Origin: Lachnospiraceae bacterium
Lineage (GTDB): Bacteria > Bacillota > Clostridia > Lachnospirales > Lachnospiraceae
Length of the DNA stretch: 52,041 bases
Direction of reading: 5' to 3'
NCBI GenBank assembly: GCA_045603305.1
Contig: JAZULV010000004.1
Coordinates: forward strand, 1-52,041
Below are positions 4,098 through 50,889 of the stretch, piece by piece. How positions within the stretch are numbered: position 1 is the stretch's first letter; each line of letters opens with the position of its first letter. A model generated the notes under the pieces. The model searched no databases and was not told the DNA's origin. It saw only the letters and a list, made by a program, of their open reading frames with translations. Position numbers and translations under genes: made by a program.

Positions 4098-4135
4098 AAG
4101 TTAATAGTTGCTTCTGTCGGGTCTCTAATGGTTTT

Positions 4136-19132: not shown

Positions 19133-19177
19133 CTTAACTCTCCATGATTTGGTTAAATCAAATTCATGATACCAGGG

Positions 19178-23894: not shown

Positions 23895-23961
23895 AATCAT
23901 TCTCCTTTCAAAGAGCTGTGACATGGCTTACAGTTAATATATCATAGCTCTTTAGATTTTT

Positions 23962-25237: not shown

Positions 25238-25281
25238 CAAAAGTGCATAAAAAATACCAGTGAAACTACAAGACTGTATTT
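25238..25281 (-). terminator. Strong Rho-independent terminator closing the minus-strand defence array
   Basis: On the minus strand, a 12-bp perfect stem ataccagtgaaa / tttcactggtat with a 14-nt loop is followed by U6. A second perfect palindrome, acttttggtca-cga-tgaccaaaagt, lies just downstream at 25209-25235. Confidence 0.6.
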
Positions 25282-25392: not shown

Positions 25393-27186
25393 TTATACAA
25401 CAAACACCTTACAACTTAATTCTAATAAATAATTTAGCCAATTATCCATGTTTTCTTGTGACCACTCTTCGTACTGTTCAAATTTAGCATTTATGTGATA
25501 CTCCGACTGCATATATATTAGTCTTTTCTCTTCATATGGCTTATTCTTAACACGTTCACCATTTTCTTCTAATGTTAAAAGTGTCAAATTGCGTAATTCA
25601 TTGATATCAAAGGTAGGTTCAACACCATCCTGGGGATTTTGTGAATAAATATGTTCAATAGACACATTCTCAAAATTGATAACAGTTCCTGTCTCTGCAT
25701 GCGGTCTTCCATTAGCACCATCATCACACCACTTATGGTATTCATTCAATGTCGCAAACAAATATTTGAGTAATTTATTACTACCTTTCTTTATATATTT
25801 CAAAGATTTAAGATTTTCCTTGAACAAAGCATCCCCTGCTTCTGAAACAATTAGGGGTCTAAGCTGTTCTGTCAAATGACCGACTCTGTACTCCAACAAA
25901 TTATCACGAATATATTTTGCTTCCTTCATAAAAATATCCGCAACTTTTTGATGTTTATTATTGCAAATACCTTTATATCTAAACATAAACCTTTCAAGCA
26001 TTTGAACAATATCGTTAAATTTGGTGTGATTCAACTCCGCTGCAGAAATAAGCAATGCTAACGTTATTTCATAATCCAGGTAATCAATCAAGTTCTTCAG
26101 TCTATTTCTATCCCATACAGTTATTGGTTGCCTTCCTTCAAATGGCCACTCACCCGACTGAATCTTGTAAAATTTGCAACTAGCCTCGTATATAGCCTCA
26201 ACAATGCTTACAACTTTTTCTTTTTCTTCTTCAGTATATTCTGCTTTATTTTCCGTTATTCCAAATATATTTTCTATGTAGTCATCAAATAGCGAATTAG
26301 TTCCCGCTCGTTTTCCCATAACGGACATATAATAATACCTTAAAAATCTGTCGACAGCCTTGCTCTCTCCTGATAATATCTCATCCCACTTGTTAAGAAT
26401 CAAATCTTCTTCCCTTGACGAACTATCTTTTGCCACAATTTCCAAAGTTCTCGATTTTAACAAATCTCCTACAGTCAGTCCCATTCCTCGATCATTTAAA
26501 ACCTGGAATAAAGTATATGCATCTCTTTTAGTCTTTGCATCAATAAATATGATAGTACAGCATTTATCGATTGCATCTTCAATATTTGCTAATACATTTA
26601 TTTTTTCATTAAAATCCGATTCTTCATCAACGCTTGTAGACACATACGAAAGCAACTTCTCATAGGCTTTATTCATTCTTTTATGAGACTCTCTGTTTCC
26701 CGCCTTTGGTGTACCAGAAATAATTGCTTCATAACATTCCTCGTCAGCATGTGACACCGTTAAATGTCGCACAACCACTGGTTTGCGATTTATTTCATCT
26801 TCATAATTAATATATTTTCGTTCTATCTTCTCCAAACGTTTCTTGACAATTATAGAACTATCTTCATCGGGTGCCAATGCGATAATCTCCCCATATTTTT
26901 TATAGATAGACAATATCAACAACATTGTAGTGGTTATTCTTTGTTGGCCATCCACTAATTCTCTCTGTTGTCTATTAGACCCCGGTACTGTTTTTTCAAC
27001 ACATACAATTCCCCCAAAAAAATGATCCTTATTATTCTGATTCTTAATTAGTGTCGCCACGTCTCTAATGTAATCTTCAACCTGCTCATCTTCCCATGCA
27101 TAATATCTTTGATATTTGGGAACTTCAAATAAAAAATTTTGTTCAAAAATCTTTCCTATAGTAGTATATGATGGAAATATATCCAT
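25393..27186 (-). CDS. GmrSD-family type IV (modification-dependent) restriction endonuclease: DUF262 N-terminus plus DUF1524 C-terminus
   Basis: 597 aa. The N-terminus has FEVPKYQRYYAWE and VDGQQRITT, the ParB-like DUF262 motifs. The C-terminus has IEHIYSQNP, a His-Me finger / DUF1524-like motif. RBS GGAGGATAAAG. Confidence 0.75.
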   Translation of the reverse strand: MDIFPSYTTIGKIFEQNFLFEVPKYQRYYAWEDEQVEDYIRDVATLIKNQNNKDHFFGGIVCVEKTVPGSNRQQRELVDGQQRITTTMLLILSIYKKYGEIIALAPDEDSSIIVKKRLEKIERKYINYEDEINRKPVVVRHLTVSHADEECYEAIISGTPKAGNRESHKRMNKAYEKLLSYVSTSVDEESDFNEKINVLANIEDAIDKCCTIIFIDAKTKRDAYTLFQVLNDRGMGLTVGDLLKSRTLEIVAKDSSSREEDLILNKWDEILSGESKAVDRFLRYYYMSVMGKRAGTNSLFDDYIENIFGITENKAEYTEEEKEKVVSIVEAIYEASCKFYKIQSGEWPFEGRQPITVWDRNRLKNLIDYLDYEITLALLISAAELNHTKFNDIVQMLERFMFRYKGICNNKHQKVADIFMKEAKYIRDNLLEYRVGHLTEQLRPLIVSEAGDALFKENLKSLKYIKKGSNKLLKYLFATLNEYHKWCDDGANGRPHAETGTVINFENVSIEHIYSQNPQDGVEPTFDINELRNLTLLTLEENGERVKNKPYEEKRLIYMQSEYHINAKFEQYEEWSQENMDNWLNYLLELSCKVFVV

Positions 27187-27212
27187 TTCTTTATCCTCCG
27201 TCTACCTTGCCT

Positions 27213-27878
27213 CTATGCATTAAATGTTATTTTAATTTTATCTGAGAGTTTTTTTTCCTTTATCCACTCTATTATTTCACTTGACAAATCGCCTATTGTC
27301 GCTTTTCCGTCACTAGCCAATCTTAAAAACAGCAATATTTCCGAATCTTGTCCAAGCTCTAAATCATCCAAAATCTGCTCTGCATCCATTTTCCCTTGTT
27401 TCAGATAATTATAACTTTCAACTGAACCATTCCATGTACTTGCTTTTTTTATTTTATTAATTGCAAATGTCGCTCTACTCTCATCTGGCAATATTCCTCT
27501 CACCACATTCAGCAAGCTAAGTATGTTCTCAGTAGTTGCTATATAATACTCTGTCCACTCTTGCCCCAACACAGCATACAATTTCTTTGATTCAGATGAA
27601 ATATATTGTGTTGTTGCATTATTCGCAGCTCCTGATTGAACCACTTTGTCACATGCAACCAAAAAGCCTTTTAACGCACTTACCACATTAGCAGATGGTC
27701 TAAAATCCGAGTTTTCAACTGCAAGATTAACCTCATCAATTATTTGCTTTAAACTTGCAATCAACTGTTTAAAGTTGTAGTCCGCAGTCGCCTGCTTCTT
27801 AGTATCTGCAGAAGCTGTTTCCATTTCGCGAACAGTCTTCATATCAATTATGCATTCATTTAATGTATCAATTAACAT
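27213..27878 (-). CDS. Hypothetical protein (221 aa). It is the last of a three-gene overlapping unit.
   Basis: RBS GGAGGGGA. Its start overlaps the preceding gene by 7 nt. No motif was recognised. Confidence 0.5.
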   Translation of the reverse strand: MLIDTLNECIIDMKTVREMETASADTKKQATADYNFKQLIASLKQIIDEVNLAVENSDFRPSANVVSALKGFLVACDKVVQSGAANNATTQYISSESKKLYAVLGQEWTEYYIATTENILSLLNVVRGILPDESRATFAINKIKKASTWNGSVESYNYLKQGKMDAEQILDDLELGQDSEILLFLRLASDGKATIGDLSSEIIEWIKEKKLSDKIKITFNA

Positions 27879-30800
27879 ACTGTCCCCTCCAATTCAGCAA
27901 TTATTCTACTGCATTCACTAATAGTAACTTTCTCATTATCGAATACATTTTGAGAACCTGTTGGATTACTTCCTCCTCCAAGTTTTGCTTTTCGTACATC
28001 GAGTTCAGCCTGAATCTTTGCTATGTCAGCAACAACTTTCTTTAATAGCAGTTCCAATTTTTCAACTTTTCTAATAGGATCTTGTGAAAATGCCAAAATG
28101 CAATCTAAAGCATTTGCTGTTTTCTGTGCAGCAACTATTTCTTTAATCGCTTTGCTCGTTGACGTAGAGTATTTCTTAACTTCATCAAACAACTCCTGAT
28201 CATACTTTCCAGGCAGCTTTCCATCCTCTGCGGTTCTATAAAATTCAACTATCTTTTCAACCATATCTTCAATTTCTTCGTCATCAACATCCGTTGTTCC
28301 AAAATTTTCTTCGATAGTTGTCATTATCTCAGCAGCCTTTGCAAGCTCATCATCCCGAACTTTATCAAGTCTTTCTAAAATCGTCCTGAGATAATCTCGG
28401 GCATCTCTACGCGGCTTAACAGGATCAACCAAATCTAATACGGAAGATTCAACTGTCAATTTTTCATTTTTAACAGTTCTTACCATTGCATCAAATTTTT
28501 CTCTGTCTAAGAATACTTGCACACGACTCTCACCTTGAATAACATTGCAATACTGTATTACAGTATCTCTATTAATCTTATCATTCTCACTTCTCGTAAT
28601 GATTCCGAGTAACGAATTCCATGCATCTGAATGAGAATTAACACCTAAACCTCTTATTCCATTATCAAGAATGTGTTCTGCTTTTAATCCTTCAACTGTT
28701 GTAGCCTTTGATGACCCAAAGAGAATAACACGATAAAATTCAGCCATCATAGCGCATTTGAAATAATCTATATCTCTATTCTCAAATGTAGTAATGACCT
28801 CTATTAAAGGCTTCTTTATTTTCTCTGTCCAGAGTTGAACTCGATATACACGTCTATCTGCACCGTCAAAATTCCAGCTACGTTTACCAAGTACATTCCA
28901 TTCAAGAAACGCCTCGATAACAGCCTGGGTCTCTCTATCTGCTGGAAGTTTATAAAACATCTGATCCGCGCCTCGCTTCTGACGATCGAAACCTACCAAA
29001 CGGTCCTTTACCCTTTTAATTTTATCAATGTTATCCATAGAAACACCCTCAGCCTGCCAATCAATAGCTGAGTATAAGTAACTGCACATATCCTCTCTTG
29101 CTTTTGAAATTAGAACAACATTACCCGTAGTGGCACCAACATTAATGGTACCTCCTGCAATCCAATTTTCTATTACTTGCAAGCTTTCATTAAGCTGAGC
29201 TCTTTCAGCCTGAATCTTCTGTTCTGCTGCAATCTGCGCAGGTGTTTTTACCACAGTCGTACTTGTTGGAGTTTGACCTGCAGGCTGGTTTGCCGGCTTA
29301 GATTGTGTAGGTTTTCCAGATACTTTCTTTCCGTTTATAAGTGGAAATCCCATATCCTCATATACCTGTGTTGAAAGTCCTGATATATAAGTAGCTTCAC
29401 CTTCTTGGTAAATATCAGTTGTTGCATCACCCCAGATACACATAAAAAGATACATTCTTTCAAACTGTTCATTTGAAGCACCGGTCTTCTGAATAGCATC
29501 TCTAAGGCTTGAATTGATATTTGTATTTATGATTTTAAACCCAGGGAAATTATCAAAATTCCACAAGGCATCTCGAACAGTTTTTTCTACAACATCTCTT
29601 AACAGATATCGAGGGGTTCGATAATTCTCTTGCAAAAGATTATTATACAAATACACTATTGCTCTTCTTGAAAATGGGAAAAGATTTAATGATTTTCCTT
29701 CTTCGGTTATAGCAACATCCCATCCATTACCTTGCTTCACTTCATGCACAGGCAAAGAATCTCCTGAGCCATCCGAAGCAGCCCACTCATCAACTTCATC
29801 TTTAGGTAAAGACATTGCATTCAAGTATCTTCCCACAAACTCGCATAAATCAGCTTCACTAGAGCCGAAAACATCATCTGGGATTACAATGAACTGAGTA
29901 ACACGATCCTTATAGTTATCACGGAAATTACTCTTATAATATTCGCTTGTAGTTCCAATAATTGATGAAATTCTACACATACCTTCCTGCTCGTAATCAC
30001 CGGTATGCCACGTAGTAAGTACATTTAGTAACGCTTCATTGACACCTGTAAAAGCCGTAATATCTTCTATCAACAGCGTTAATGATTTACCTTGCTTCTT
30101 TAATTCTTTTCTTATTTCTTTAAATACCTGTTCAAAGTCTCCTGGTTCCAATCCCGCGCAGCTCTGAATTACTGTATCAACCTTTGAATTAAGATATTTG
30201 GCTACAGCATCTGCAACCTCTGGCTCCATATACAACTTTTCGAGCAAACGTACAGCCTTTTTATCTCCTCCGTCATACTGAACTTTGTCACAGAATGCGA
30301 TATCAACTTGAAAATCCTCTGAAAGGAATTCAGGAACAACATCTCGATTATCTGATGTACTGCTTTCAGCAACTTTAGAATAAATTCTTGCAATTGGACC
30401 ATCATCCGCCATCATTCGTGCCTTAAACAATTCATTATTTAAAAGTGGTGCAATTCTCTTTCTATCAGCATTATTAAGATAATCAATATCTTCGCCATTA
30501 TCATCCTCTATTTCAACAATAAACTGATGATAAATAGCATTCATCAATTTGCTCTCACTAATAGTTGATGTCGCATTAACTAATCTCTCATATAAATCTT
30601 TATTCTGAATGGATGCTACTTCCGGTTTTTCTAAAAGCTGCTTAATTGTTCCTTTCAATGTGTTGTCACTTCTTCGCACAAAAAGAACAACCTCGCTATC
30701 TGGTTTCTGCTTTTCTATTTTTGCATCAAACCATCTAATCAGATGAGATTTACCTGCACCACTTGATCCAATTACAAGAACAAACTGATGCTGATCTTTT

Positions 30801-30991
30801 GGATTTAGTACGACTCTTTTGTATATCTGTTCTTCCGTATATGCTTTGGATGCCGCACTCGAATCATATTCCTTTTGCAATTTAATTTGCTTGAAAGGAA
30901 CATGCGTAGCCATAAAATCACCATATGAACTGGTAATAGTATCTATTCTTACTACTTCTGATAATCTCTGTTTTGCAACTTCTGAATTCAT
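27872..30991 (-). CDS. Large P-loop NTPase (about 1039 aa) of unknown family
   Basis: The ORF track opens on TTG. A likely ATG at 30989-30991 follows an AGGGGG RBS. Walker A is VLVIGSSGAGKSHL and the Walker B-like motif is TLLIEDITAF. There is an internal low-complexity linker (KPTQSKPANQPAGQTPTSTTVVKTPAQIAAEQKIQAERAQ) and a long helical C-terminus. Confidence 0.65.
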   Translation of the reverse strand: MNSEVAKQRLSEVVRIDTITSSYGDFMATHVPFKQIKLQKEYDSSAASKAYTEEQIYKRVVLNPKDQHQFVLVIGSSGAGKSHLIRWFDAKIEKQKPDSEVVLFVRRSDNTLKGTIKQLLEKPEVASIQNKDLYERLVNATSTISESKLMNAIYHQFIVEIEDDNGEDIDYLNNADRKRIAPLLNNELFKARMMADDGPIARIYSKVAESSTSDNRDVVPEFLSEDFQVDIAFCDKVQYDGGDKKAVRLLEKLYMEPEVADAVAKYLNSKVDTVIQSCAGLEPGDFEQVFKEIRKELKKQGKSLTLLIEDITAFTGVNEALLNVLTTWHTGDYEQEGMCRISSIIGTTSEYYKSNFRDNYKDRVTQFIVIPDDVFGSSEADLCEFVGRYLNAMSLPKDEVDEWAASDGSGDSLPVHEVKQGNGWDVAITEEGKSLNLFPFSRRAIVYLYNNLLQENYRTPRYLLRDVVEKTVRDALWNFDNFPGFKIINTNINSSLRDAIQKTGASNEQFERMYLFMCIWGDATTDIYQEGEATYISGLSTQVYEDMGFPLINGKKVSGKPTQSKPANQPAGQTPTSTTVVKTPAQIAAEQKIQAERAQLNESLQVIENWIAGGTINVGATTGNVVLISKAREDMCSYLYSAIDWQAEGVSMDNIDKIKRVKDRLVGFDRQKRGADQMFYKLPADRETQAVIEAFLEWNVLGKRSWNFDGADRRVYRVQLWTEKIKKPLIEVITTFENRDIDYFKCAMMAEFYRVILFGSSKATTVEGLKAEHILDNGIRGLGVNSHSDAWNSLLGIITRSENDKINRDTVIQYCNVIQGESRVQVFLDREKFDAMVRTVKNEKLTVESSVLDLVDPVKPRRDARDYLRTILERLDKVRDDELAKAAEIMTTIEENFGTTDVDDEEIEDMVEKIVEFYRTAEDGKLPGKYDQELFDEVKKYSTSTSKAIKEIVAAQKTANALDCILAFSQDPIRKVEKLELLLKKVVADIAKIQAELDVRKAKLGGGSNPTGSQNVFDNEKVTISECSRIIAELEGTVC

Positions 30992-30993
30992 AC

Positions 30994-31788
30994 TCAACCC
31001 CCTATCGTAATATGGGTAACTGTAGTCTCAAGCTCATGTCCTTCACAGGGATATAACGACCATATTTCTTGAGCATCCAGTCTATGCTCTGCTTTGATTA
31101 CTCCTAAATCGTTGAGCATTCTAATCGCATTTGAAAAACCATAATTAAATGTCTTTGTATCAACAGTATTATGCAAGGCGATTTTTGCATACGGCATTAT
31201 CACATCGACAAATTCATCTATTGCATATTCTGTTTTTTTCTTTAACTTGAGGCTTTCAATAATATCTCTGAGAAAAGCGGCTGCATTTGGAAGCAAAATA
31301 CCAGCAGCACCAGCCTGTGAGTCATGCATATACCCAAATCCCAGAAACGCCATCCAGAATCTCCACGCACGCATATCATCCTCTATTACTTTTTCTCCGA
31401 TATTACGTTCCATAACATCACTCATTTTAGAAACACTATTATGGTCAAGCACTTCTGTTCCCATGTCTAAATACCCTTGAGTAACCTTATAGAACAAGCT
31501 ATCTGAAACAAGCTCCAAGTGCATATTGATATAATGCCTCATGTTATCCATGCTTTTTACTGCATCCTTATCTACCGCTAACGAGATTGTATTTTCCTTT
31601 GTATTTATAAGCTGCAATTGTTCTGCAGCAGTCCTTACAATACCAAAATAAGGCGTCTTACCTCCGAGGTTCTGCGGTTCAAGCAATAGTTTTAGTGTAT
31701 TCTCATCCATTGGCTTGCTTGCCACTTCTCTACAAAGTGCATATACTCTTTCAGGTATTGCAGATGTTTGCATTCTATTTCCAAACAT
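30994..31788 (-). CDS. Hypothetical protein (264 aa)
   Basis: ATG with RBS AAAGGATG. Its stop lies 2 nt from the start of the ATPase gene. No motif was recognised. Confidence 0.5.
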   Translation of the reverse strand: MFGNRMQTSAIPERVYALCREVASKPMDENTLKLLLEPQNLGGKTPYFGIVRTAAEQLQLINTKENTISLAVDKDAVKSMDNMRHYINMHLELVSDSLFYKVTQGYLDMGTEVLDHNSVSKMSDVMERNIGEKVIEDDMRAWRFWMAFLGFGYMHDSQAGAAGILLPNAAAFLRDIIESLKLKKKTEYAIDEFVDVIMPYAKIALHNTVDTKTFNYGFSNAIRMLNDLGVIKAEHRLDAQEIWSLYPCEGHELETTVTHITIGG

Positions 31789-31792
31789 AATC

Positions 31793-34294
31793 CTACATCC
31801 TTTCCAAAATATAACTATCTATCTTTGGCCCTTCGACCATAGCAGATATAGGCTTTTGAACCTTTTGAATAAAGTAATCCTCTTTAACTATGTGAATCAA
31901 TTTAATATCTTTATTCTTATACTTTCTCAATGTCATGCAAAACTCATATACTTTATCTGCACCGGAATTATACAATGCAACAACACCTCCCGAGACATAG
32001 TAACCTGACCCCTGCGTGCACAATTCTCGATATTCTTTGATTCCTAAAATCATTACATTACTCTGCTTACTCATATTAAGAATTAATTCAAAATCATTCT
32101 CAATACTTGTATCCTCAACAACTATTACAACAGCGCCAGCACTCACATAACGATTTATTAAGGAATAATCGTCCTCTTCACCAATAACAAGAACCTCATT
32201 TTCGCCCTGGCACAACTTATTTAATTCGGGTGATATTTGCTTCTTAGGCTCTTTTACTGGTAATAGCAGTGGAAATTTACCCTCTTCCATCGTTTCAGGA
32301 TACTTATGTTTTGCACATCCACCGCAATACATAGACACTTTATCGTATGTAGAATAGAACATTTCCGACCAGCAAATCCTATCACTGAAGTCAATACCAT
32401 TTTTTATTCTCTTGATTTCTCTTTCAAAACCTTCCGACTCTCTATCCCTGATTTCATTTATTATTGCCGGAACATCTGCGGATTCATTTCTAAGAGCATC
32501 ATCCAATATGTCAACACGAATCTTATAACATTCATTTTTAGAATCATAAATCATTGACTTAATTGAAATCAGATTGTGTCGACGCAAAAGAAGAATAACA
32601 TACACATTCCACTGAATGTCTATTTCACTCGCATCGTCATCTTCTTTTGTAACATTGTAAATAGGTTTCACAGCTGTATCTAATGTTACCATTCCCTTAA
32701 ACCACAAGGATGTCTTGCTCTTATACATACTAAGCCAACGTCCCCATATCTTATCTGCGCTAAGAACTTTATTCATTCTCTTATGTGCAGAATCAATGTC
32801 ATCAACTGGATTAATACACATTACACTTAAGCTCACTAACCCATCTCGACCGCCTCGACCAAGCTCCTGGTAGTATTGATTGGGTGTATCCGGAATGTAC
32901 AAATGTAGTACAGTTCGTACATCTCCTTTATCTACACCTACACCAAATGCTGAAGTTGCAATGATTAGATCTATTTTATTATTTGTCCAATCCTTTATTA
33001 TTCTCTCTCTCTCAGCAGACTTTGTATCACCGGTAAATGTCTCTAAGTTATTGAGCCCTGCAGAAACAAGAGTCTTTTTTATCTCTTCCGCTTCCTTGGG
33101 CGAATTAATGTAAACAACCATTGGATGTGGCAATTTTTTTACCAGCTCAATCATCTTTCGTTTTTTATCTGAATAGCTCTTGGCTTTCACAAGCAAATAC
33201 CGTGGCTCATGTCTCAGCGCATCACACCTAATCTCAATCCACTTTCCAGTTGTTGTAAACATTTGCTTAAGTTTCATCACGGCTGTTTTTGTATACGTCG
33301 CAGATAACAACACTGTGCGCAACTGCGAATTCATTACTAACAATTCCTTGCGCCATGGTTCGAGACATTGATAATCTACTCTAAAGAAATCACCCCATTC
33401 AATAACTATATGGGCCTCATCAACAATCAGATTTTTCAAATATTTCTTGGCATTAGCCTCATTTATCATATTCACAAATTCAGTATTTCTAATAAGAGCT
33501 TCTGGTGATATAAACAGCAATCTGGCAGTTTCAGCTTTAAGTGCATTTCTAAGAGCATTTTTACGTTCTAATTCAATTCCGCTGTAATAACAGAATATCT
33601 CATTATCCGCATTATGCTTAACATTATTCTTCGCATTACGAACCTGGTCAATTGCTAACGATACCGTAGGTACTATAACAATTGTAAGCCCTTCTTGTTG
33701 ATATGCCATTGTCTGTGTAATTAAGCTTTTCCCACCACCGGTTGGAAGTGAAACTAGAGTAGTGTATCCTTCTGGAGTGTTCAATGCTCCAAATACTGCC
33801 AGCTTCTGCTCTAAAGACTTGAATTCTTTGTAACAAGTCAAATTGTAAATATATGCATTATTACCATAAAATATATCTTTCTGTTTTTCCGCATCTCCTC
33901 CAACTTTCTTTCTCTGAAATGCCTGGTCCACAAAGAAAGAATCAATATAGACTGGCATTTCAAGACTTGCATAGTATAGCCCTTCCGCATTCAACATAAT
34001 GCCATACTCATTTTCTGGTGGTATCATCCCATCGGGAATGGATATTTCATTCTGAAAAACTAACAAATAGTTTCTCAAAGAGCATAAAAAGACATCTTTA
34101 TTTGCAACTCCCGACTTAAACTTTTCGAAATAGATAACCAATCTTTTTGCTGTATTATATCGGAAGCTATCAATTGCAGAGTCCTCCCCAACGAATGTGG
34201 GCATAGCACCACTGGCATTACCATTTATATAATTTTCAACATAGGTTTCTATCACCTTCGTATCCATTATTTCTTCACCATCCAAACAAAGCAC
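31793..34294 (-). CDS. RecQ-like SF2 DEAH helicase with N- and C-terminal extensions
   Basis: Motif I is LPTGGGKSL, motif II is IVDEAHIV (DEAH) and the RecQ-type motif VI is QELGRGGRDG. The C-terminal roughly 350 aa contain Cys pairs (YCGGCAKHK). The track start is GTG. An ATG at about 34267 (MDTKVIETY) overlaps the stop of the upstream SNF2 gene as TAATG and is the likely true start. Confidence 0.75.
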   Translation of the reverse strand: MLCLDGEEIMDTKVIETYVENYINGNASGAMPTFVGEDSAIDSFRYNTAKRLVIYFEKFKSGVANKDVFLCSLRNYLLVFQNEISIPDGMIPPENEYGIMLNAEGLYYASLEMPVYIDSFFVDQAFQRKKVGGDAEKQKDIFYGNNAYIYNLTCYKEFKSLEQKLAVFGALNTPEGYTTLVSLPTGGGKSLITQTMAYQQEGLTIVIVPTVSLAIDQVRNAKNNVKHNADNEIFCYYSGIELERKNALRNALKAETARLLFISPEALIRNTEFVNMINEANAKKYLKNLIVDEAHIVIEWGDFFRVDYQCLEPWRKELLVMNSQLRTVLLSATYTKTAVMKLKQMFTTTGKWIEIRCDALRHEPRYLLVKAKSYSDKKRKMIELVKKLPHPMVVYINSPKEAEEIKKTLVSAGLNNLETFTGDTKSAERERIIKDWTNNKIDLIIATSAFGVGVDKGDVRTVLHLYIPDTPNQYYQELGRGGRDGLVSLSVMCINPVDDIDSAHKRMNKVLSADKIWGRWLSMYKSKTSLWFKGMVTLDTAVKPIYNVTKEDDDASEIDIQWNVYVILLLRRHNLISIKSMIYDSKNECYKIRVDILDDALRNESADVPAIINEIRDRESEGFEREIKRIKNGIDFSDRICWSEMFYSTYDKVSMYCGGCAKHKYPETMEEGKFPLLLPVKEPKKQISPELNKLCQGENEVLVIGEEDDYSLINRYVSAGAVVIVVEDTSIENDFELILNMSKQSNVMILGIKEYRELCTQGSGYYVSGGVVALYNSGADKVYEFCMTLRKYKNKDIKLIHIVKEDYFIQKVQKPISAMVEGPKIDSYILERM

Positions 34295-37605: not shown

Positions 37606-37623
37606 AATCTCATCCTTTCATCG

Positions 37624-40287: not shown

Positions 40288-40290
40288 CCC

Positions 40291-43407: not shown

Positions 43408-43428
43408 GACGTTTACCCCCAATGTACA

Positions 43429-44247: not shown

Positions 44248-44258
44248 ACGTTCACCTT

Positions 44259-45452
44259 CTACACTTCTTCTCTTAATACCTTTATCAGCTGATTAATATC
44301 TGCTTCTGTCGTATGTTTATTAAGCGATATTCTTAATACCTTTGAAACCTTGTCTTTCAACCCCAATGCAGTTATTACATATGACGGTTCTCCTGCACTA
44401 CATGCAGAACCTGCTGATAATGCTATTCTGTCGCTTATATGCTTTATAAACCTTTCATTATTGAAATCCTTCTTATCGACCACTATACTTATAATTCCGG
44501 GCAATCTCTTCTCTGATAGGTTTGTTAATGATATATCTGGTAACGTCTTTAATCCAGCAACAAGCATCTGATCAAACTGTAAAATCTTCTGTTCATTTGT
44601 ATCGAAATCCCTCATTGCAATGTCTGCAGCTTTACCAAAACCTACAATATTATGAACTGCTAAAGTCCCAGCCCTAAACCCATTTTCCTGTTCACCACCA
44701 TGCATAAATGCAGTAATTGGAGGAATACCATACGCATCACTTTTAATAAATGCTGCTCCTATTCCTTTGGGGCCATAAATCTTGTGCGCTGAACACGAAG
44801 CAAAATCCAATCCCATCGCATGAACATCAATAGCCATTTTCCCTATTGCTTGTGTTAGGTCAGAATGAATTGCAATACCCTTCATTGAACACATCTTAGC
44901 AATTCCAGAGACATCACTAATAGTACCAACTTCATTATTCACATAGATAACAGAAACCATTGCGGTGTTATTCTTTAGCGCTTCCTCTATAGTTGTAACA
45001 AGTATTTCTCCCGTTTCAGTAATACCAACAAAAGAAGCTTCATATCCTCTGTCTACAGATTTTCTCCCACCAAACAATGTTACAGTAGGATCATTATTAG
45101 AATACAAATCACCATTAAGGAATTTGCACGTATTCAATGTGGCCTTATGTTCTGCAACAGATGTAATGATATGGTTCTTTCCATCTCCGTAGTAACGTCG
45201 ATAATCCATATAACCTTTAATAATAAAATTTGTGCTTTCTGTTGCACCTGCTGTAAAAATTATTTCTTCTGGATTAGCTCCCAACAGTTTTGCAACCTGA
45301 ACACGTGCATTTTCTACTGCATTATGAGCGTTAACTGCCTTGCAATAATACTTACTTGAAGGATTGCCATATTCTTCTCGGAGATAAGGGAGCATTGCCT
45401 CCAACACTTCCTCATCCACCGGAGAAGTTGCACTATTATCCAAATAAATCAT
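44259..45452 (-). CDS. dndA: Cysteine desulfurase (NifS/IscS-like), the DndA role in DNA phosphorothioation
   Basis: 397 aa starting MIYLDNSATSPVDEEVLEAMLPYLREEYGNPSS. It has the PLP-lysine region and the active-site Cys loop LSAGSACSAG. Its start overlaps the dndE stop (ATGA). Confidence 0.85.
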   Translation of the reverse strand: MIYLDNSATSPVDEEVLEAMLPYLREEYGNPSSKYYCKAVNAHNAVENARVQVAKLLGANPEEIIFTAGATESTNFIIKGYMDYRRYYGDGKNHIITSVAEHKATLNTCKFLNGDLYSNNDPTVTLFGGRKSVDRGYEASFVGITETGEILVTTIEEALKNNTAMVSVIYVNNEVGTISDVSGIAKMCSMKGIAIHSDLTQAIGKMAIDVHAMGLDFASCSAHKIYGPKGIGAAFIKSDAYGIPPITAFMHGGEQENGFRAGTLAVHNIVGFGKAADIAMRDFDTNEQKILQFDQMLVAGLKTLPDISLTNLSEKRLPGIISIVVDKKDFNNERFIKHISDRIALSAGSACSAGEPSYVITALGLKDKVSKVLRISLNKHTTEADINQLIKVLREEV

Positions 45453-45829
45453 ACAGTATCACCTACTCCTAATACTTGAAGTATGTATTTATCCATGCTT
45501 CCAGCATGATTATACATATCAAGTAGTAATTCACTACCCCTATCAATGTGTGCCTTAACATACTTCGGAAAAAATTCTTCCTCCGGCAAATATCTTCCTT
45601 CAACTTCTTCAATCAAAACCTTGAAATATGTTTCATTATCACCTGTAATTGTCTGCCTGTTAAGATCCAATCCGTCTGAATCAGATTCATAATCTGCAAC
45701 TGAAGAATTCTCTTTCAAAGACCACGCTATTGCATGTTTTACCAAAGTATATGGTTTATAGTTTGTTCTATTTTCTAACTCTTGGAATATTTCCTGAGTT
45801 CTCTTTGATGTTTTTAATCTGAATATCAT
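45449..45829 (-). CDS. dndE: DndE-like small protein
   Basis: 126 aa starting MIFRLKTSKRTQEIFQELENRTNYKPYTLVKHAIAWSL. Its size and its position between dndD and the desulfurase fit DndE. Confidence 0.7.
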   Translation of the reverse strand: MIFRLKTSKRTQEIFQELENRTNYKPYTLVKHAIAWSLKENSSVADYESDSDGLDLNRQTITGDNETYFKVLIEEVEGRYLPEEEFFPKYVKAHIDRGSELLLDMYNHAGSMDKYILQVLGVGDTV

Positions 45830-45832
45830 TGC

Positions 45833-47977
45833 TTACACCTCAAAAAAATAATGTTGTTCTACAGTAGTTCTGTTTTGACTCTCATCATTTATAAGAAGAT
45901 ATTCCTTAGCAATATATGGCTTTATAATCTCGTAATACTCTTCATTTATTTCTTCATCGGTTGAAAGAATTACTACCTGTTTGCTGATATTAGGGAAGAA
46001 CTTCTCTGATATCTCTTTTCTATGGTTAGCATCGATACGCGCATAAGGAGTATCAATAACAAACGGTATATCCTTGCCCGACATTTCTATAATTGCCCAA
46101 TACAATGACAATATAAATATCTGACGTTCACCCTTTGACAAGCGACTAATATCTATACGCTTATACAAATCATAGCTACCACGCTGCGTGTCACACTCTA
46201 TTGCCTGTTGCAATTGTAGAACAGTCTTCGCCTTATACTTTTCACAAAGGATCTTCATTCCCTGCTTTCCAATTTCAAATGCAAACACTTCTTTCCCAAG
46301 ATTCTTCATTAAATAAAGTAATTCTGTGGCACTGTACTTAACATTTTGATAAAGGTTGAATTGAAAATCATCCTCTATTTCGATATGTGTAATTAAATTA
46401 TTCTTTCTATAAATATGCTGTAATTTCTCTACTATCAGTTTTTCAAGTTTACATTTGATCGACTCCGATTTATTATCAAGCATCTTTCCCATCATTTGAG
46501 ACAAGCCCATACTCAATTCAAATATATGTTTATTCTGAGCGTTATCCTTAATACCTTGAAATGCTCGGTCTCTTTGCTGAATTGCTACTGCCAGTTCCTC
46601 TTTCAAAGTTGTTAAACTAATCTCTGCATCATGAATTCTTGACAAAATCTCTTCTTTCTTTTTTAGCAGCGCATTTTCTTTTTCCGCAAACTTCCCTGCA
46701 TCTTCGTCTGTCATCGCACTCTTCAAAATGCGGTTGATTTCCATAGTTCTATCAGCAGCTTCCCGTCTTTTTTCAACCAACTCTACCATTTCCGCAACTT
46801 CAAAATCATCAATCGCAGAAATCATTGCGCTTACTCGACCGTAGTCTTCCTTAGATAGGTCATGCACAGGCTGTGCACCTTCTTTAAAGCCCTTCGGTTT
46901 AAACTTCCTAAGCAAGAATTCCATCAATGCATCAACAGTATCATCACTAACTTCCTGATTCGCATTAAGTGTATTCTGAATTTCCTGTCTCTTTAATTTT
47001 TGCTGAACATAATAATAGATTTCACCTTTTTCCTCAAAATCTAATTGTTCAGAAATTTTTCCTGTAAAATCGCGAAGGATATAAAAAGGCATCAATCCTT
47101 CAACAAACATTTTGATTTTTGTAAGGGTTTCCGTTTTAATATGTTCAGCTTCTGAATACTCTTTCAGAAGTGACTGTCGTTCGATTTCTGTTATTCCTCC
47201 GGCATTCTTAAAGGCACTCTCAACCTCAATCAATTCCGTTTCAATTTTCTCTAACTCACTTCTATCCGCTACAAGTTGAGATTCTAACGCTGAATAGTTT
47301 GTCTCTATTTCCTCTGCATTTCTACGCAGCTCTTCATATTGTGTATATATTTCTTCTTCATCATTACTTAAAGCTTTTCCCGCATATCCTGTTGTATACT
47401 TTCTAATAATTTCAAAGATATCTAATCCACACAAAGTATAAACTGCATTTTTGACGTAAGAGTTGTATGTGCTCGTCGAGAAAATGCTTCCAACTTCCTC
47501 ACCATCGAACAAGAAAAATTCAAACAAGTCCGGTGGAATCATACCCTGTAAATAGTTCTGGAAATATGACAACTCTTGATTATCTAATATACGACCTTCT
47601 GTTTTAACATAATACTTTTCTTCTAATTTGTGTTTTGTATAATCCCACGCTCTTGTTATCTCGTATTCTTTAACTTCTCGCTCAACCATCAAAGATACAA
47701 ATATCTGAACTCTTGATTCGACAACATCTTTCTGAAAAGATTTAGAATTAATGCAATCCTTGATTTTTGCAATATACGTAGGATTAACACCCACATAACC
47801 AAATGATAATGGTCCATATAGCGCTATCTTAATAGCAGAAAATAACGAGGTCTTTCCCGCTCCATTCTTTCCACCAATCAGAATAATGTTTTTACTATTA
47901 TCATCACTTGTGAAGTCAAACTCATTCAATCCTTCATAGGAGTTGAAATTATATAACACTATTTTATTTATTTTCAT
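45833..47977 (-). CDS. dndD: DndD, SMC/ABC-like ATPase of the DNA phosphorothioation system
   Basis: The track start is TTG. An ATG at about 47977 (MKINKIVLYNF) follows AAGGAG. Walker A is IGGKNGAGKTSLFSAI. There are long coiled-coil segments. The C-terminus has LSKGERQ (signature-like), PFVIDTP (Walker B) and ARID (D-loop). Confidence 0.85.
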   Translation of the reverse strand: MKINKIVLYNFNSYEGLNEFDFTSDDNSKNIILIGGKNGAGKTSLFSAIKIALYGPLSFGYVGVNPTYIAKIKDCINSKSFQKDVVESRVQIFVSLMVEREVKEYEITRAWDYTKHKLEEKYYVKTEGRILDNQELSYFQNYLQGMIPPDLFEFFLFDGEEVGSIFSTSTYNSYVKNAVYTLCGLDIFEIIRKYTTGYAGKALSNDEEEIYTQYEELRRNAEEIETNYSALESQLVADRSELEKIETELIEVESAFKNAGGITEIERQSLLKEYSEAEHIKTETLTKIKMFVEGLMPFYILRDFTGKISEQLDFEEKGEIYYYVQQKLKRQEIQNTLNANQEVSDDTVDALMEFLLRKFKPKGFKEGAQPVHDLSKEDYGRVSAMISAIDDFEVAEMVELVEKRREAADRTMEINRILKSAMTDEDAGKFAEKENALLKKKEEILSRIHDAEISLTTLKEELAVAIQQRDRAFQGIKDNAQNKHIFELSMGLSQMMGKMLDNKSESIKCKLEKLIVEKLQHIYRKNNLITHIEIEDDFQFNLYQNVKYSATELLYLMKNLGKEVFAFEIGKQGMKILCEKYKAKTVLQLQQAIECDTQRGSYDLYKRIDISRLSKGERQIFILSLYWAIIEMSGKDIPFVIDTPYARIDANHRKEISEKFFPNISKQVVILSTDEEINEEYYEIIKPYIAKEYLLINDESQNRTTVEQHYFFEV

Positions 47978-49355
47978 CTTCAATCTCCTTTAGAATTTCA
48001 TGATGAAGCCATTGCTGATTAAGCAAACGTTCCAAAGCATCCTTCATAATTTTTTGATTCGAATAATTTTTATTATGATAAACAGAAAGAATTACATTTC
48101 TAACCAAATCAAATGGAACATCGTTTGCTTCTGCTAATCTCTCTAATTCATCTACAGTCTCTTTATCAATCAGAGGTTCTTTATACTGATCCCATGGTAA
48201 TTTCTCGCCGGTTAGCTCTTCGTATAACTCGACAAGCGTTCGTCTTGAAAGATCTAATTCATCATCCCATATCTCATCAATTGCTTTAAGTTCTTCCTGA
48301 GTGATGAGTTCGTATCCCATTTGTTGCTGAGTTTCTATTAGCTTTGTCAAAATTAGCTTTCTGGCCTCCCAGGTAAATGGGCCATAGCCCATCTCTCCCG
48401 TCTTTGTTTCATAGACAGTTCCGTTCCTTCGCTTTTTCTCACGGTATTCATCTTTATCACGAATACTCATAATCCAAGTTCTAAATTCTGCTAAAGGAAT
48501 CAATTCTCTATGACCACTCCTGATAAATCCATTTAATGATTTATCATCTTTAACAACAGTACACACCCAACATCCAAATCTAGAATTACCACATGACTGT
48601 GTCTGCCCACCAGCATTAGCTCCTGCAAAAGGACATTCTCCACTATCCGCATCAGCATATAACGCGACAAGTTCATTATTGTTAGAACCCCAAGGTGTTT
48701 TCCCGCCATCAAGCTTTAAAAGAACATCCCAAACATCATCTGTTGTCAATTCGACTATTGGATTATATACATACGCATCTTGAATTGTTTCATGTCTATT
48801 CATCAAACGATTAGCTAATTCTCTACCTTCAATACGCCTTCTACGCGCTTCACTTTCAGCTTTTCGAACGCCTAGAAGAACAACAACCTCTTCACCTTCT
48901 TTTTTTATCACATCCCTAATATAATCAGCACTAGGATTAATCTTAAGCCTATCCGTACACCATCTAAAAGTTCCATTCATTCTTGGCGTTGGAAACCCTC
49001 GACCTATTACATTTGCCCAAAATGAGTTATCTGCTGGTGGTGTTACCATCGTAGAAATAACAGGCAACTCATCTTTGGCTGCAGCGTCACCAAGAAGTTT
49101 ATTCATTTTATTGAGATATATTTTTATCAAAGGATTCTCAATAAGTGTATCTGAAGAAACAATATAAACACTCTTATTTCTTTCCTCTTTCGGAAGGGTT
49201 AATAACATCTTATAAACCAATTCAACGACGGTCGTAGAATCCTTTCCTCCGCTATATCCAATTACCCAAGGGCGCTTATCCGACTGATAAACATACTTAA
49301 TCTCTTCTATCAGTTCCTCTAGCGTATTCTCATTAAAATAACTATTCGTTGCCAT
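47964..49355 (-). CDS. dndC: DndC, PAPS-reductase-like PP-loop ATP pyrophosphatase with a Cys cluster
   Basis: 463 aa with GYSGGKDSTTVVEL (PP-loop SGGKDS) and DSGECPFAGANAGGQTQSCGNSRFGCWVCT (Fe-S Cys cluster). RBS GAGGTAG. It overlaps dndD by about 14 nt. Confidence 0.9.
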   Translation of the reverse strand: MATNSYFNENTLEELIEEIKYVYQSDKRPWVIGYSGGKDSTTVVELVYKMLLTLPKEERNKSVYIVSSDTLIENPLIKIYLNKMNKLLGDAAAKDELPVISTMVTPPADNSFWANVIGRGFPTPRMNGTFRWCTDRLKINPSADYIRDVIKKEGEEVVVLLGVRKAESEARRRRIEGRELANRLMNRHETIQDAYVYNPIVELTTDDVWDVLLKLDGGKTPWGSNNNELVALYADADSGECPFAGANAGGQTQSCGNSRFGCWVCTVVKDDKSLNGFIRSGHRELIPLAEFRTWIMSIRDKDEYREKKRRNGTVYETKTGEMGYGPFTWEARKLILTKLIETQQQMGYELITQEELKAIDEIWDDELDLSRRTLVELYEELTGEKLPWDQYKEPLIDKETVDELERLAEANDVPFDLVRNVILSVYHNKNYSNQKIMKDALERLLNQQWLHHEILKEIEDENK

Positions 49356-49689
49356 CGTTACTACCTCGATGCTGAGCGACTTGGCTTAGTAGTCCAAGAC
49401 TCAACTCTTTCCCTTCGTCATCCATTTGCTTTATATAACTTAATATTTTGCGTTCAACATCATCTGCATCATCATTAAAAAATTCTCTTCCCACTAATTG
49501 ATCAAGTGAAATATTATATATGTCCGCAATCTTTTTAAGCTGTTCAATATCTGGGGTCGTAACTCCCCTCTCAATGTTGCTTATCACTTGCTGTGATACA
49601 TTCAGCCTTTCAGCCAGCTCCATTTGCTTAAGTTTTTTGCTTTTTCTTATTTCTGCTAATCGTTTTCCTATAGTCTGCATATCTTTCAT
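49342..49689 (-). CDS. XRE-family HTH regulator overlapping the start of dndC. It is the likely regulator of the array and stands in place of dndB.
   Basis: 115 aa with the HTH IGKRLAEIRKSKKLKQMELAERLNVSQQVISNIERG. Its 3' end overlaps dndC by 14 nt. Confidence 0.75.
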   Translation of the reverse strand: MKDMQTIGKRLAEIRKSKKLKQMELAERLNVSQQVISNIERGVTTPDIEQLKKIADIYNISLDQLVGREFFNDDADDVERKILSYIKQMDDEGKELSLGLLSQVAQHRGSNDGNE

Positions 49690-49887
49690 TCTCCATCAAA
49701 ACAAAGGATACAATAGGGCATATTTTACCCAGTTTGCACAGTTATACCGAATACAAATTATACACGAAAAGCTCAATAAATACAACAAAATTACGTATAT
49801 TCGCCCTTGACCAACAATATTATTGTATTTTATAATATATACAAACTTTTTGTTAGTCGTTACAAAGAAAAGGAGGATAAAACAAAA

Positions 49888-50889
49888 ATGATTTGTAAAA
49901 AATGCCAAGAAAAACTTACTCCCAATAATACTTATCCATCAGACCACCGATACTGCATAACATGTGGTAAGGAACATACCGAACACCTCTCTGAACGTAG
50001 ACAAACCTTATTATCGTTACGCGAAATGAATTTGGAATCTAAAATTATTCAAACCAAGTACCTAATAAAATGTGCCATTAGGGAATTCGGACTTGACAAA
50101 GTGTATATATCATATTCTGGCGGTAAAGATTCAACAGTTCTTTCCCATATTGCCAAAAGCATATACCCCGATATCTTACACTTGTTTGCTAATACAACAA
50201 ACGAATATCCCGAAACCATCCAACATATCAAGTGGGAAAAGGACGAAAATGGAACAAATATCATTTCCGTCCTTCCCATAGATTGCCACGGAGAACTTTG
50301 GACTTTTAAAAAAGTTGTCGAGCGATATGGATATCCGATGTTCTCCAAGCGGGTGTCTAATGCTATACGAACATATCAACATGCACTTTCCGAACGTACA
50401 AAGCAGAATTCACAAAATTACATCGATCGGAACTTTAAAAAGTATGATAAGTACAAAGATCTACCAATATCTGATAAGTGTTGTGATAAATTAAAAAAGG
50501 AACCTCTTCGTCGAAAAGCTAAAGAACTCGGATTAGAATGTGCTATCTTAGGCATACTTGCCTCCGAAAGTTACCAACGTGAAAAAGATTGGTTAGAACA
50601 TGGTTGCAACGTATTCCACAAACGAAATGATAATCAAAGTCGTCCATTATCTTTTTGGACTGATGAGGATATCCTCGAATACATCGCCAAATACGATGTT
50701 AACATTCCCAAACTCTATGAGATGGGCTATAACAGAAATGGCTGTATGTATTGCGGTTTTGGCGTTCATTTAGAACCTTCACACTGCAATAGATTCCAAA
50801 AGCTAAAGCAAACACATCCAACTCAATATACCTATTTTCTAAATAACTTTGGACAACTTATGCTTGAATTCGAGATAAATATTGTATAA
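49888..50889 (+). CDS. Zinc-ribbon plus PAPS-reductase-like (PP-loop) protein, divergent from the HTH/dnd operon
   Basis: The track start (49807) is TTG. A real ATG at 49888 follows AAGGAGGA. The N-terminus has CKKCQEKL...CITCGKEH (a C4 ribbon). It then has YISYSGGKDSTVL (PP-loop) and C-terminal Cys residues (NGCMYCGF). Confidence 0.75.
   Translation: MICKKCQEKLTPNNTYPSDHRYCITCGKEHTEHLSERRQTLLSLREMNLESKIIQTKYLIKCAIREFGLDKVYISYSGGKDSTVLSHIAKSIYPDILHLFANTTNEYPETIQHIKWEKDENGTNIISVLPIDCHGELWTFKKVVERYGYPMFSKRVSNAIRTYQHALSERTKQNSQNYIDRNFKKYDKYKDLPISDKCCDKLKKEPLRRKAKELGLECAILGILASESYQREKDWLEHGCNVFHKRNDNQSRPLSFWTDEDILEYIAKYDVNIPKLYEMGYNRNGCMYCGFGVHLEPSHCNRFQKLKQTHPTQYTYFLNNFGQLMLEFEINIV

Follow-up and report, generated by a model that had tools for sequence, protein, structure and literature searches.

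We analyzed a 52,041-nucleotide stretch of DNA from a Lachnospiraceae bacterium (GCA_045603305.1, contig JAZULV010000004.1, positions 1–52,041 of the forward strand), which we refer to as the window. It carries genes for phosphorothioate (PT) modification of DNA (dndC, dndD, dndE and dndA). Behind them, on the same strand, lies a block of seven genes that encode, in this order, a NERD-UvrD protein, a protein of 887 amino acids (p887), and proteins resembling DpdE, DpdF, DpdG, DpdH and DpdI. We think it probable that the block is a restriction partner of PT marks that has so far gone undescribed. We consider it fairly likely that the locus joins a Dnd writer, a Dpd-like restriction core and an AddAB-like executor in a PT-coupled modification-restriction system.

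Genes of the locus

Fourteen open reading frames (ORFs), all on the minus strand, extend from position 49689 down to 25393, and every junction between them is either an overlap or a gap of at most 26 nucleotides (nt). At the head of the array, the gene for a helix-turn-helix (HTH) regulator overlaps dndC by 14 nt, dndC overlaps dndD by 20 nt, dndD and dndE are 3 nt apart, and dndE overlaps dndA by 4 nt. Gaps of 11, 6, 3 and 18 nt then separate, in turn, dndA from a gene for an Mrr-type nuclease, this gene from the NERD-UvrD gene, the NERD-UvrD gene from the gene for p887, and the latter from the DpdE-like gene. The DpdE-like and DpdF-like genes overlap by 28 nt, a gap of 4 nt leads to the gene for a 264-amino-acid (264-aa) protein, and overlaps of 4 and 7 nt join this gene to the DpdH-like gene and the DpdH-like gene to that for a 221-aa protein, after which 26 nt remain before a terminal DndI-like gene. 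An earlier, first-pass annotation, made by a model from the sequence alone, had described an operon-like array of co-directional minus-strand genes, and this description agrees with what we found. The interval it gave (25393–50889) reaches beyond the end of the array at 49689, however, and also takes in a divergent plus-strand gene (49807–50889) that it did not describe. Tandem hairpins resembling intrinsic terminators lie at approximately 25290–25218 on the minus strand, about 100 nt beyond the last stop codon, with U6 after the first hairpin, and jointly fold at −37 kcal/mol (z = −8.7 relative to shuffles). The single terminator hairpin with U6 that had been placed at 25238–25281 is real, but its position is shifted and there are two hairpins rather than one.

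The coordinates of genes in this section all refer to the minus strand. DndC (47964–49355), a PP-loop sulfurtransferase, and DndD (45833–47983), an ATPase of the SMC/ABC type, both pass the curated cut-offs of their models, with 420 bits for TIGR03183 (cut-off 290) and 342 bits for TIGR03185 (cut-off 246). The 90% cluster of the window DndC includes a member from Blautia producta that is named DndC by NCBI. DndE (45449–45829) matches TIGR03184 with E = 7e-12 and 45.7 bits, which is under the cut-off of 71.85; its position and size fit, and an orthologue in a related locus (L003) that is 97% identical has the Pfam DndE signature PF08870. The gene in the position of dndA (44259–45452) encodes a cysteine desulfurase of the NifS/IscS class (class V aminotransferase). 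It matches the DndA model TIGR03235 with E = 1.8e-106 and 356 bits, under the cut-off of 480, and models for IscS and NifS give similar scores; IscS can replace DndA. The first-pass annotation had assigned these four genes in the same way, and the assignment stands, with sub-cut-off matches for DndE and DndA. Scans with NCBIfam, Pfam and PADLOC found no DndB among the operon genes, and DndB is dispensable for PT modification. The first gene of the operon (49342–49689) encodes an Xre-family HTH regulator (Pfam HTH_3, E = 2e-17; NCBIfam RstR-like, E = 3.8e-20), as had been noted before, and this regulator is kept at the head of the loci most closely grouped with the window (clade A, see below). 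It probably stands in for DndB as a regulator, or autoregulator, of the writer genes.

Five consecutive genes of the block match the Dpd proteins DpdE to DpdI. The DpdE-like protein (34267–37605), a helicase of the SNF2/RapA type that is similar to BrxHII, matches the NCBIfam DpdE model with E = 6e-107 and 359 bits (cut-off 500). The match pairs residues 60–1107 with model positions 41–1044 of 1048, several PADLOC DpdE models match as well, and the protein is 23% identical to Nostoc DpdE, with which it is colinear across 1143 columns. The DpdF-like protein (31793–34294), a RecQ-type DEAH helicase with a C-terminal cysteine cluster, matches the NCBIfam DpdF model with E = 5.6e-138 and 462 bits (cut-off 550) and is 30% identical to and colinear with Nostoc DpdF. 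The DpdH-like protein (27872–30997), a P-loop ATPase of 1041 aa that is similar to BrxC, matches the NCBIfam DpdH model with E = 6.5e-100 and 336 bits (cut-off 450) over residues 10–990, corresponding to model positions 7–982 of 1014, and is 23% identical to and colinear with Nostoc DpdH. At least 95% conservation is seen for the DEAH box and the zinc-type cysteine cluster of the DpdF-like protein among 103 homologues, and for Walker A and Walker B of the DpdH-like protein among 102. The matches of all three proteins are near full length, yet all fall beneath the NCBIfam equivalog cut-offs; the PADLOC results are in line with these assignments.

The two smaller proteins are related to Dpd proteins through comparisons of family alignments. 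When compared by hhalign, the family of the 264-aa protein (30994–31788) aligns with Nostoc DpdG at 96.3% probability (E = 1.6e-9). The alignment reaches both C-termini, the gene sits between those for DpdF and DpdH as it does in Dpd, and BLASTP matches the protein to that in the DpdG position of a Paenibacillus Dpd cluster. Likewise, the family of the fast-evolving 221-aa protein (27213–27878) aligns with the product of the 234-aa gene that follows dpdH in Nostoc (91.4%, E = 9e-7). This alignment is co-terminal at the C-end, and BLAST clusters the 221-aa protein with the equivalent Paenibacillus gene. In the annotated dpd cluster of the Nostoc plasmid, the genes run dpdE-dpdF-dpdG-dpdH-(234-aa gene)-dpdJ...dpdK-dpdD, and their sizes are nearly equal to those in the window. 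We conclude from these alignments that the genes for the SNF2 helicase, the RecQ-like helicase, and the 264-aa, 1041-aa and 221-aa proteins are homologues of those for DpdE, DpdF, DpdG, DpdH and DpdI in canonical order. The first-pass annotation had called the block non-canonical, whereas it does have relatives in Dpd; its domain calls (Mrr, NERD-UvrD, SNF2, RecQ-like, P-loop ATPase and GmrSD) are borne out by NCBIfam, Pfam and PADLOC.

Other components of Dpd are missing from the locus. NCBIfam, Pfam and PADLOC give no match there to DpdJ (a YprA-family helicase), DpdK (a PLD nuclease) or DpdD, and neither DpdA (a TGT paralogue), DpdB, DpdC nor genes for preQ0 synthesis are found among the 15 locus genes. 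The canonical Dpd cluster of the Paenibacillus plasmid pART37 illustrates what the locus lacks. In Paenibacillus sp. 37, the relevant region of pART37 (335–402 kb; L064 and L157) contains dpdA, queC, queD and queE, a VUT-family (queuosine-salvage) gene and two copies of dpdJ. The proteins in its DpdG and DpdI positions are the closest relatives of the 264-aa and 221-aa proteins of the window that have no PT linkage. The same island also has an additional gene pair downstream, which encodes a protein of 947 aa together with a UvrD helicase.

The first two genes of the block have no counterpart among the DpdE to DpdI genes. The first (40291–43422) encodes a NERD nuclease domain fused to an SF1 helicase of the UvrD/AddA type (Pfam NERD, UvrD-helicase and UvrD_C). 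Across 98 unique homologues, conservation reaches at least 95% for the NERD motif D...EVK and for helicase motifs I, II, III, V and VI. The second gene (37624–40287) encodes p887, and it lies directly behind the NERD-UvrD gene in every locus examined. The p887 family comprises 643 representatives at 50% identity. Four cysteines (C711 and C869-x2-C872-x5-C878) are invariant across 31 diverse homologues, and their spacing, C...CxxCxxxxxC, is what we take to be that of the iron staple of AddB, Cas4 and Dna2. Neither p887 alone nor a profile of 31 sequences gave a significant match to Pfam, NCBIfam, PADLOC or PDB sequences, and a Pfam scan of nine distant relatives found no significant family. Faint Pfam matches to Exonuc_V_gamma (RecC) occur in three of the 31 members (best E = 0.013) and to ADDB_N in one (E = 0.0098). 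The AlphaFold2 model, built from a 14-sequence alignment, is poor (pLDDT 53.6, pTM 0.32). From the cysteines and these faint matches, p887 might be an AddB/RecC-like scaffold partner of the NERD-UvrD protein with a Cas4-like iron-staple domain. The first-pass annotation had called p887 an iron-staple protein; the cysteines behind that call are indeed invariant, but the domain itself is at best weakly indicated.

Comparison of p887 with DpdD by hhalign gave nothing, nor did comparison with the large hypothetical 935-aa protein of pART37. Against the 947-aa neighbor of the UvrD gene on that plasmid there was only a weak colinear match (E = 0.027). One distant member of the family (P0401, 1439 aa) carries a C-terminal fusion to a PIN domain (E = 1.2e-16).

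Two further nucleases flank the block. An Mrr-type (type IV-like) restriction endonuclease (43429–44247; Pfam Mrr_cat, E = 5e-33; PADLOC mREase_IV, E = 2e-49) lies between dndA and the block. At the other end, the terminal gene (25393–27186) encodes a nuclease of the DUF262/DUF1524, or GmrSD, type (Pfam GmrSD_N and GmrSD_C). This protein matches DndI of Salmonella Cerro 87 (PDB 9JFL) with E = 2.7e-72, residues 1–595 aligning with 1–593, and keeps Y25 and the DGQQR motif. PADLOC labels it 'Orf5' (E = 4.8e-185), which, on the strength of the 9JFL match, we read as DndI. The terminal "GmrSD" gene is thus, by sequence homology, a full-length DndI homologue, and a known PT effector family is present in the locus; the first-pass annotation had recognized none. 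A system of IscS-DndBCDE with DndI was shown in 2024 to be a PT-based defense, and Tyr25 was implicated in PT sensing (PMC11662687). For the Salmonella protein only, PT-stimulated ATPase activity and nicking of PT-free DNA are described, with PT triggering release from DNA (PMC11662687).

Conservation of the block and linkage to PT genes

We surveyed one genome per species with the p887 alignment as query, which yielded 57 loci, and scanned metagenomes with that C-terminal portion of the DpdE-like protein which is specific to the family, which yielded 80 further loci. Counts given here cover the 138 loci that have at least two core genes. Loci from genomes of named source are all from Bacillota, with the exception of one 46-residue fragment from Bacteroidaceae, and include representatives of Lachnospiraceae, Ruminococcus, Clostridium, Sedimentibacter, Selenomonadaceae/Pectinatus and Erysipelotrichales. 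The order of the block (NERD-UvrD, p887, DpdE, DpdF, DpdG, DpdH, DpdI) is unchanged in all loci that are long enough to assess, and close packing of the genes into an operon is seen in relatives of the window as well. Clades were defined by neighbor-joining trees of three block proteins; clade A includes the window, and clade B corresponds to Ruminococcus.

The position of the dnd genes relative to the block distinguishes two types of locus. In type 1 (65 loci), dnd genes lie upstream of the block, and in clades A and B dndCDEA is immediately upstream. In type 2 (20 loci from clades C and D and the L031 group of Lacrimispora and Blautia marasmi), DpdI is followed directly on the same strand by dndB and dndC and then by dndD, dndE and a desulfurase gene. 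Type 2 DndB scores 392 bits (cut-off 328) and DndC 618 bits, and the genes that follow bear Pfam signatures for DndD, DndE and a desulfurase of the DndA type; a full dndBCDEA set lies immediately downstream in L152–L156. Another 26 loci have no dnd genes upstream and a downstream side that is out of view, and all of these belong to type 2 clades or are linked to dptGH. A further 26 are too short to assess. Only one locus (L125) has both flanks in view and no PT gene, and here an IS66-type element (TnpA-like, TnpB-like and transposase ORFs, 18059–20582) directly follows DpdI, at the site that dndB occupies in its relatives. PT genes are therefore adjacent to the block in all five lineages, in two opposite architectures, and in 85 of 86 assessable loci. 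A co-occurrence of this kind had been proposed as a check on the first-pass annotation, and it is strong.

We considered whether the block also occurs without PT genes, since 23 genome loci lack dnd upstream. We rejected this after look-ups of metagenomes and contigs from the same clades found dndB and dndC downstream. The only clade A locus without dndCDEA (L001) has dptG and dptH directly upstream (DptH 737 bits, cut-off 620), which suggests that the block is stacked with classical DndFGH restriction genes in at least one lineage. In L001, positions 1–6660 hold dptG, dptH and a gene for a 777-aa DUF4145 protein, all preceding the block.

The two architectures draw on different Dnd lineages. 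DndC proteins of type 1 and type 2 are 33–37% identical to each other, and the type 1 module lacks DndB whereas that of type 2 has it. Within type 1, the phylogenies of Dnd and block also agree only in part. In L013, identity is 63% for DndC and 61% for p887, but in clade B it is 74% for DndC and 39% for p887. These differing Dnd lineages, together with the partial disagreement within type 1, indicate that the pairing of block and Dnd was re-made more than once.

In contrast to the seven genes of the block, which are constant, Mrr and DndI occupy exchangeable slots. The Mrr slot between dndA and the block is filled in some type 1 loci and empty in others. The slot after DpdI holds a DndI-like gene in the window and in two metagenome loci (68% identity), a gene for a 380-aa HNH_4 protein in 13 loci, including that of Blautia stercoris, and elsewhere genes for longer GmrSD_N proteins, a leucine-rich repeat protein and others; its content differs even between close relatives. 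At 90% identity the cluster of the window DpdE has 443 members and that of DndC has 408, while that of DndI has two. The DpdI-like protein has a closest database relative at 77% identity, compared with 92–97% for p887, DpdE and DpdH, which points to diversifying selection or recombination both in this gene and in the slot that follows.

These observations bear on the possibility that defense genes are merely stacked in an island, and that the block is an autonomous, mark-independent anti-phage system which responds to DNA ends or to intermediates of replication in the manner of Hachiman, Gabija and AddAB-like systems, and which only travels together with Dnd. The mobile setting of the locus, with its Tn916-type int/xis (see below), would fit this, as would the clearly exchangeable Mrr and DndI slots, the 75–86 nt gap ahead of dndB in type 2 loci, the match of the UvrD protein to GajB models (~1e-31), and the occurrence of the UvrD and p887 pair without the remainder of the block in L047. 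We nevertheless regard such stacking as unlikely. PT genes adjoin the block in five lineages, in opposite architectures and with different Dnd subtypes, and the 86 assessable loci include no PT-free neighborhood save the one disrupted by IS66. Type 2 loci have no conserved upstream neighbor, their upstream regions being mutually unrelated, so PT genes are the sole constant neighbor of the block. Moreover, the nearest homologues, DpdE to DpdI, belong to a modification-dependent restriction system, and Pfam and PADLOC found neither GajA, HamA nor any other partner of the named autonomous systems. The first-pass annotation had left open whether the array is a new PT-linked system or a stack of separate ones. 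For the central seven genes, which are invariant and adjacent to PT genes, the former is favored, and for the flanking Mrr and DndI genes the latter is partly correct.

In L047 (1406–7154, Erysipelotrichales) the NERD-UvrD and p887 genes stand as a pair with neither DpdE to DpdI nor dnd genes nearby, and may form a module of two genes that is separable from the rest. Some loci of the Blautia stercoris type have DpdF or DpdE split into two ORFs (L067, 3606–6086; L069, 268–3606), and many block genes are broken in three metagenome loci (L092, L096 and L137); such breaks could mean that a costly system has been naturally inactivated, or they could be errors of assembly. Three type 1 loci (L008, 2859–4832; L010; L014) have a GmrSD_N (DUF262) gene encoding about 650 aa between dndE and dndA. 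Some other type 1 loci without canonical dndB (L072, from 19343; L084–L089, ~18275–19600) have genes downstream of the block for DGQHR/DndB-family proteins of 417–439 aa, which match Pfam DndB (6.6e-41) and fall under the DndB equivalog cut-off.

Relationship to described systems

The closest described relative of the block is Dpd. Both contain DpdE to DpdI as five consecutive genes in the same order, of similar sizes and with full-length homology, and in both a multi-gene, helicase-rich set partners a DNA-modification module. However, the writer in the window is DndCDEA, which acts on the backbone to produce PT rather than on a base, and DpdA/TGT, DpdB, DpdC and preQ0 genes are lacking. The NERD-UvrD and p887 genes stand where Dpd has DpdJ, DpdK and DpdD. 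Identity to the canonical proteins is 23–30%, and scores lie under equivalog cut-offs. The first-pass annotation had reasoned that a clean assignment of these genes to a self-contained described system, with no co-occurrence with dnd genes, would speak against a new system. We found instead sub-cut-off matches and the absence of DpdJ, DpdK, DpdD and DpdABC.

With DndBCDE-DndFGH and IscS-DndBCDE-DndI, the locus shares its writer family (DndC, DndD, DndE and DndA), a DndI homologue, and the logic of a writer with an ATP-driven restriction partner. Unlike these systems, it has no DndF, DndG, DndH or DndB, seven Dpd-like genes separate the writer from DndI, and DndI is dispensable in its relatives. 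In a PADLOC search of the window for DndF, DndG and DndH, the sole match was to the P-loop of DndF only (4.9e-4) and fell on the DpdH-like gene. The archaeal dndCDEA-PbeABCD system (PMC6459918) similarly has the DndB-less gene order dndCDEA followed on the same strand by an effector set that contains a helicase. PbeA is a fusion of an HKD nuclease and an SF2 helicase, PbeC is an ABC ATPase of the CxC type, and PbeD is a DndE paralogue (PMC10853773). Proteins of the PbeA, PbeC and PbeD types are absent from the locus, where the only match is that of the C-terminal helicase domain of PbeA to the DpdF-like gene (5e-13).

As in AddAB/RecBCD-type pairs and GajB of Gabija, the NERD-UvrD protein joins an SF1 helicase of the UvrD family to a PD-(D/E)XK nuclease domain. 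It is paired with a large protein, p887, whose C...CxxCxxxxxC pattern is like that of the AddB/Cas4/Dna2 iron staple. In contrast to these systems, the NERD nuclease is N-terminal rather than C-terminal, the partner protein matches neither AddB nor RecC significantly, GajA is missing, and the pair lies inside a PT/Dpd-like operon. There is some similarity as well to BREX type 3, DISARM and ARMADA (bioRxiv 10.1101/2025.09.15.676423), as the DpdE-like protein matches BrxHII, DrmD and RapA models and DpdH with DpdI is regarded as BrxC-like, but the locus has no PglX methyltransferase, PglZ, BrxL, DrmA, DrmB or YprA helicase.

Several complete systems were considered and rejected. For Gabija, GajB models match the UvrD domain, and the locus lacks GajA, the OLD-family ATPase/Toprim nuclease of that system. 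For DISARM, there are only sub-threshold matches of the DrmD type to the SNF2 gene (148 bits, cut-off 610), and the defining partners DrmA, DrmB (a DUF1998 helicase), DrmC (PLD) and a methyltransferase are missing. BREX, Hachiman, Zorya and PbeABCD gave matches to single domains only, and their defining partner genes are likewise missing. By its gene content, the locus falls outside Dpd, DndFGH, Pbe, Ssp, Gabija, DISARM and BREX.

The pairing of a Dpd-like block with Dnd is not described in the literature that could be searched, which included large studies of Dnd and BREX neighborhoods and of YprA- and Dpd-related systems; the original Dpd paper was outside this search. A 2018 review notes that 45.6% of dndBCDE clusters are 'solitary', that is, without dndFGH, asked about other partner nucleases and anticipated alternatives (PMC6435447). 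The locus family described here is a concrete and widespread candidate partner for solitary Dnd clusters in Bacillota of the human and animal gut, and its cultured carriers include Blautia, Agathobacter, Eubacterium ramulus, Schaedlerella, Lacrimispora and Ruminococcus. We expect that present defense-finder models would probably call these loci as partial 'dpd' and 'dnd' systems, while our census argues that they are one unit.

Proposed function and setting of the island

DndACDE proteins place Rp-phosphorothioates in short motifs, of which they usually modify a minority. In the mechanism we propose, DndA, DndC, DndD and DndE would write PT on host DNA under the control of the Xre-type regulator. 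The DpdE-I-like core would load onto DNA and survey it by ATP-driven translocation, and the NERD-UvrD/p887 pair would unwind and cleave DNA on which the host PT pattern is missing, thereby taking the role of DpdJ and DpdK. PT on self DNA would silence or release the core, by analogy with DndFGH and DndI. The Mrr-type enzyme and the DndI-like nickase may serve as extra nucleases that widen coverage. DpdE resembles BrxHII, and DpdH with DpdI resembles BrxC. Work by Thiaville and colleagues in 2016 reportedly found that Dpd reduces transformation by unmodified DNA. The restriction phenotype of Dpd comes from DpdD-K, and modification needs only DpdABC (PMC10164549). In DndFGH, PT represses ATP hydrolysis and translocation (PMC11662687), and gut isolates of Clostridiales and Lachnospiraceae that have dnd genes carry PT (PMC12914056).

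Several points weigh against such a PT-coupled restriction system. The link of the block to PT and to restriction comes from gene adjacency and homology, and defense genes are known to cluster in islands for reasons besides joint function. The DpdE-, DpdF- and DpdH-like proteins are homologues rather than equivalogs of the Dpd proteins; they form a sister lineage, and their function could differ. In type 2 loci, the gap between DpdI and dndB makes separate transcripts possible. The 26 loci whose downstream side is out of view were placed in type 2 by clade membership alone. Finally, the census was anchored on the block and so covers dnd modules of these subfamilies only where they accompany it.

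A role in maintaining or repairing PT DNA is a different interpretation of the constant linkage to PT writers. The block would then process nicks and breaks at PT sites, caused by oxidative cleavage or Dnd nicking, or would aid Dnd proteins in finding their target sites or redistributing them, with no attack on foreign DNA. PT DNA is susceptible to oxidative cleavage, nicking of DNA by DndD has been reported, and enzymes of the RecQ, UvrD/AddA and SNF2 types are classical repair and remodeling enzymes. Against this role, the homologous DpdD-K set is credited with restriction and not modification (PMC10164549), and most Dnd systems function without such genes. The block also keeps the company of restriction nucleases (Mrr, DndI and HNH) and of dptGH, and the rapid evolution of DpdI and of the terminal slot is what an arms race would lead one to expect. 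We therefore consider a repair function quite improbable. Least probable, in our estimation, is a PT-activated abortive system which, like SspE, would use host PT as a cofactor and then cause indiscriminate DNA damage or halt the cell upon infection. There is precedent in SspE for PT-stimulated activity (PMC11662687), and the fact that most consensus sites in known Dnd hosts are without PT is awkward for a scheme in which unmarked means foreign. Sequences do not distinguish an abortive system from the proposed restriction system, but the precedent of Dpd points to classical restriction.

The five-gene core links PT and 7-deazaguanine systems, and the use of one core with two marks offers a direct route to self-recognition by DpdE-I. 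A tentative extension, which we think possible but somewhat doubtful, is that the DpdE-I core works as a surveillance chassis which is agnostic to the mark and has been wired to 7-deazaguanine in Dpd and to PT here, with interchangeable executors. Since the two marks are chemically unrelated, such a core would read the mark indirectly and not by a shared direct chemistry. It might do so through contacts with the writer or with the ParB-like DndB or DpdB, or through stalling of translocation at modified sites. The executors would be a YprA helicase and a PLD nuclease in Dpd, and the NERD-UvrD protein with its AddB-like partner here. In that case the Bacillota loci would represent a sixth restriction partner linked to PT, beside DndFGH, PbeABCD, SspE, SspFGH and DndI, and would account for many of the 'solitary' Dnd modules in gut Firmicutes.

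The setting of the locus is that of a mobile element. The island boundary, beside housekeeping genes that include gatA and gatB, is marked by an integrase pseudogene of the Tn916 type together with an intact Xis-like ORF of 68 aa (22700–24168, minus strand). The integrase matches Pfam Integrase_DNA (Tn916) and, in truncated form, Phage_integrase. Its read-through translation has an in-frame stop after ...CTNMAK, and the same frame runs on into an LDTYTH region, presumably the site of the catalytic tyrosine. The decayed int/xis reported in the first-pass annotation is thus present, with the decay confined to the integrase. G+C content is 0.34–0.37 in the island, compared with 0.41–0.44 in the housekeeping flank (gatA, gatB and a low-molecular-weight phosphatase gene). 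On these grounds and those given above, it seems reasonably probable that the locus is a horizontally acquired island that holds one composite modification-restriction system.

Just upstream of the integrase and Xis genes lies a 193-aa ORF (24158–24739) with no family match. The other window genes checked by Pfam beyond the locus are housekeeping genes, mobile-element genes or genes without a Pfam match. The plus-strand gene at 49807–50889, which is divergent from the HTH-dndC head of the operon, encodes a PP-loop protein of the PAPS-reductase family (Pfam PAPS_reduct, E = 1.1e-24) with an SGGKDS motif and an N-terminal cysteine-rich segment, and has weak matches to the PADLOC models for BrxP and SspD. 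In the clade of the window this gene is a conserved neighbor of the operon head, but it is not present in the Ruminococcus clade. Homologues occur at the same divergent site in 17 related loci, including L003, L007, L011–13, L016–18, L038, L053, L055, L058, L060 and L061.

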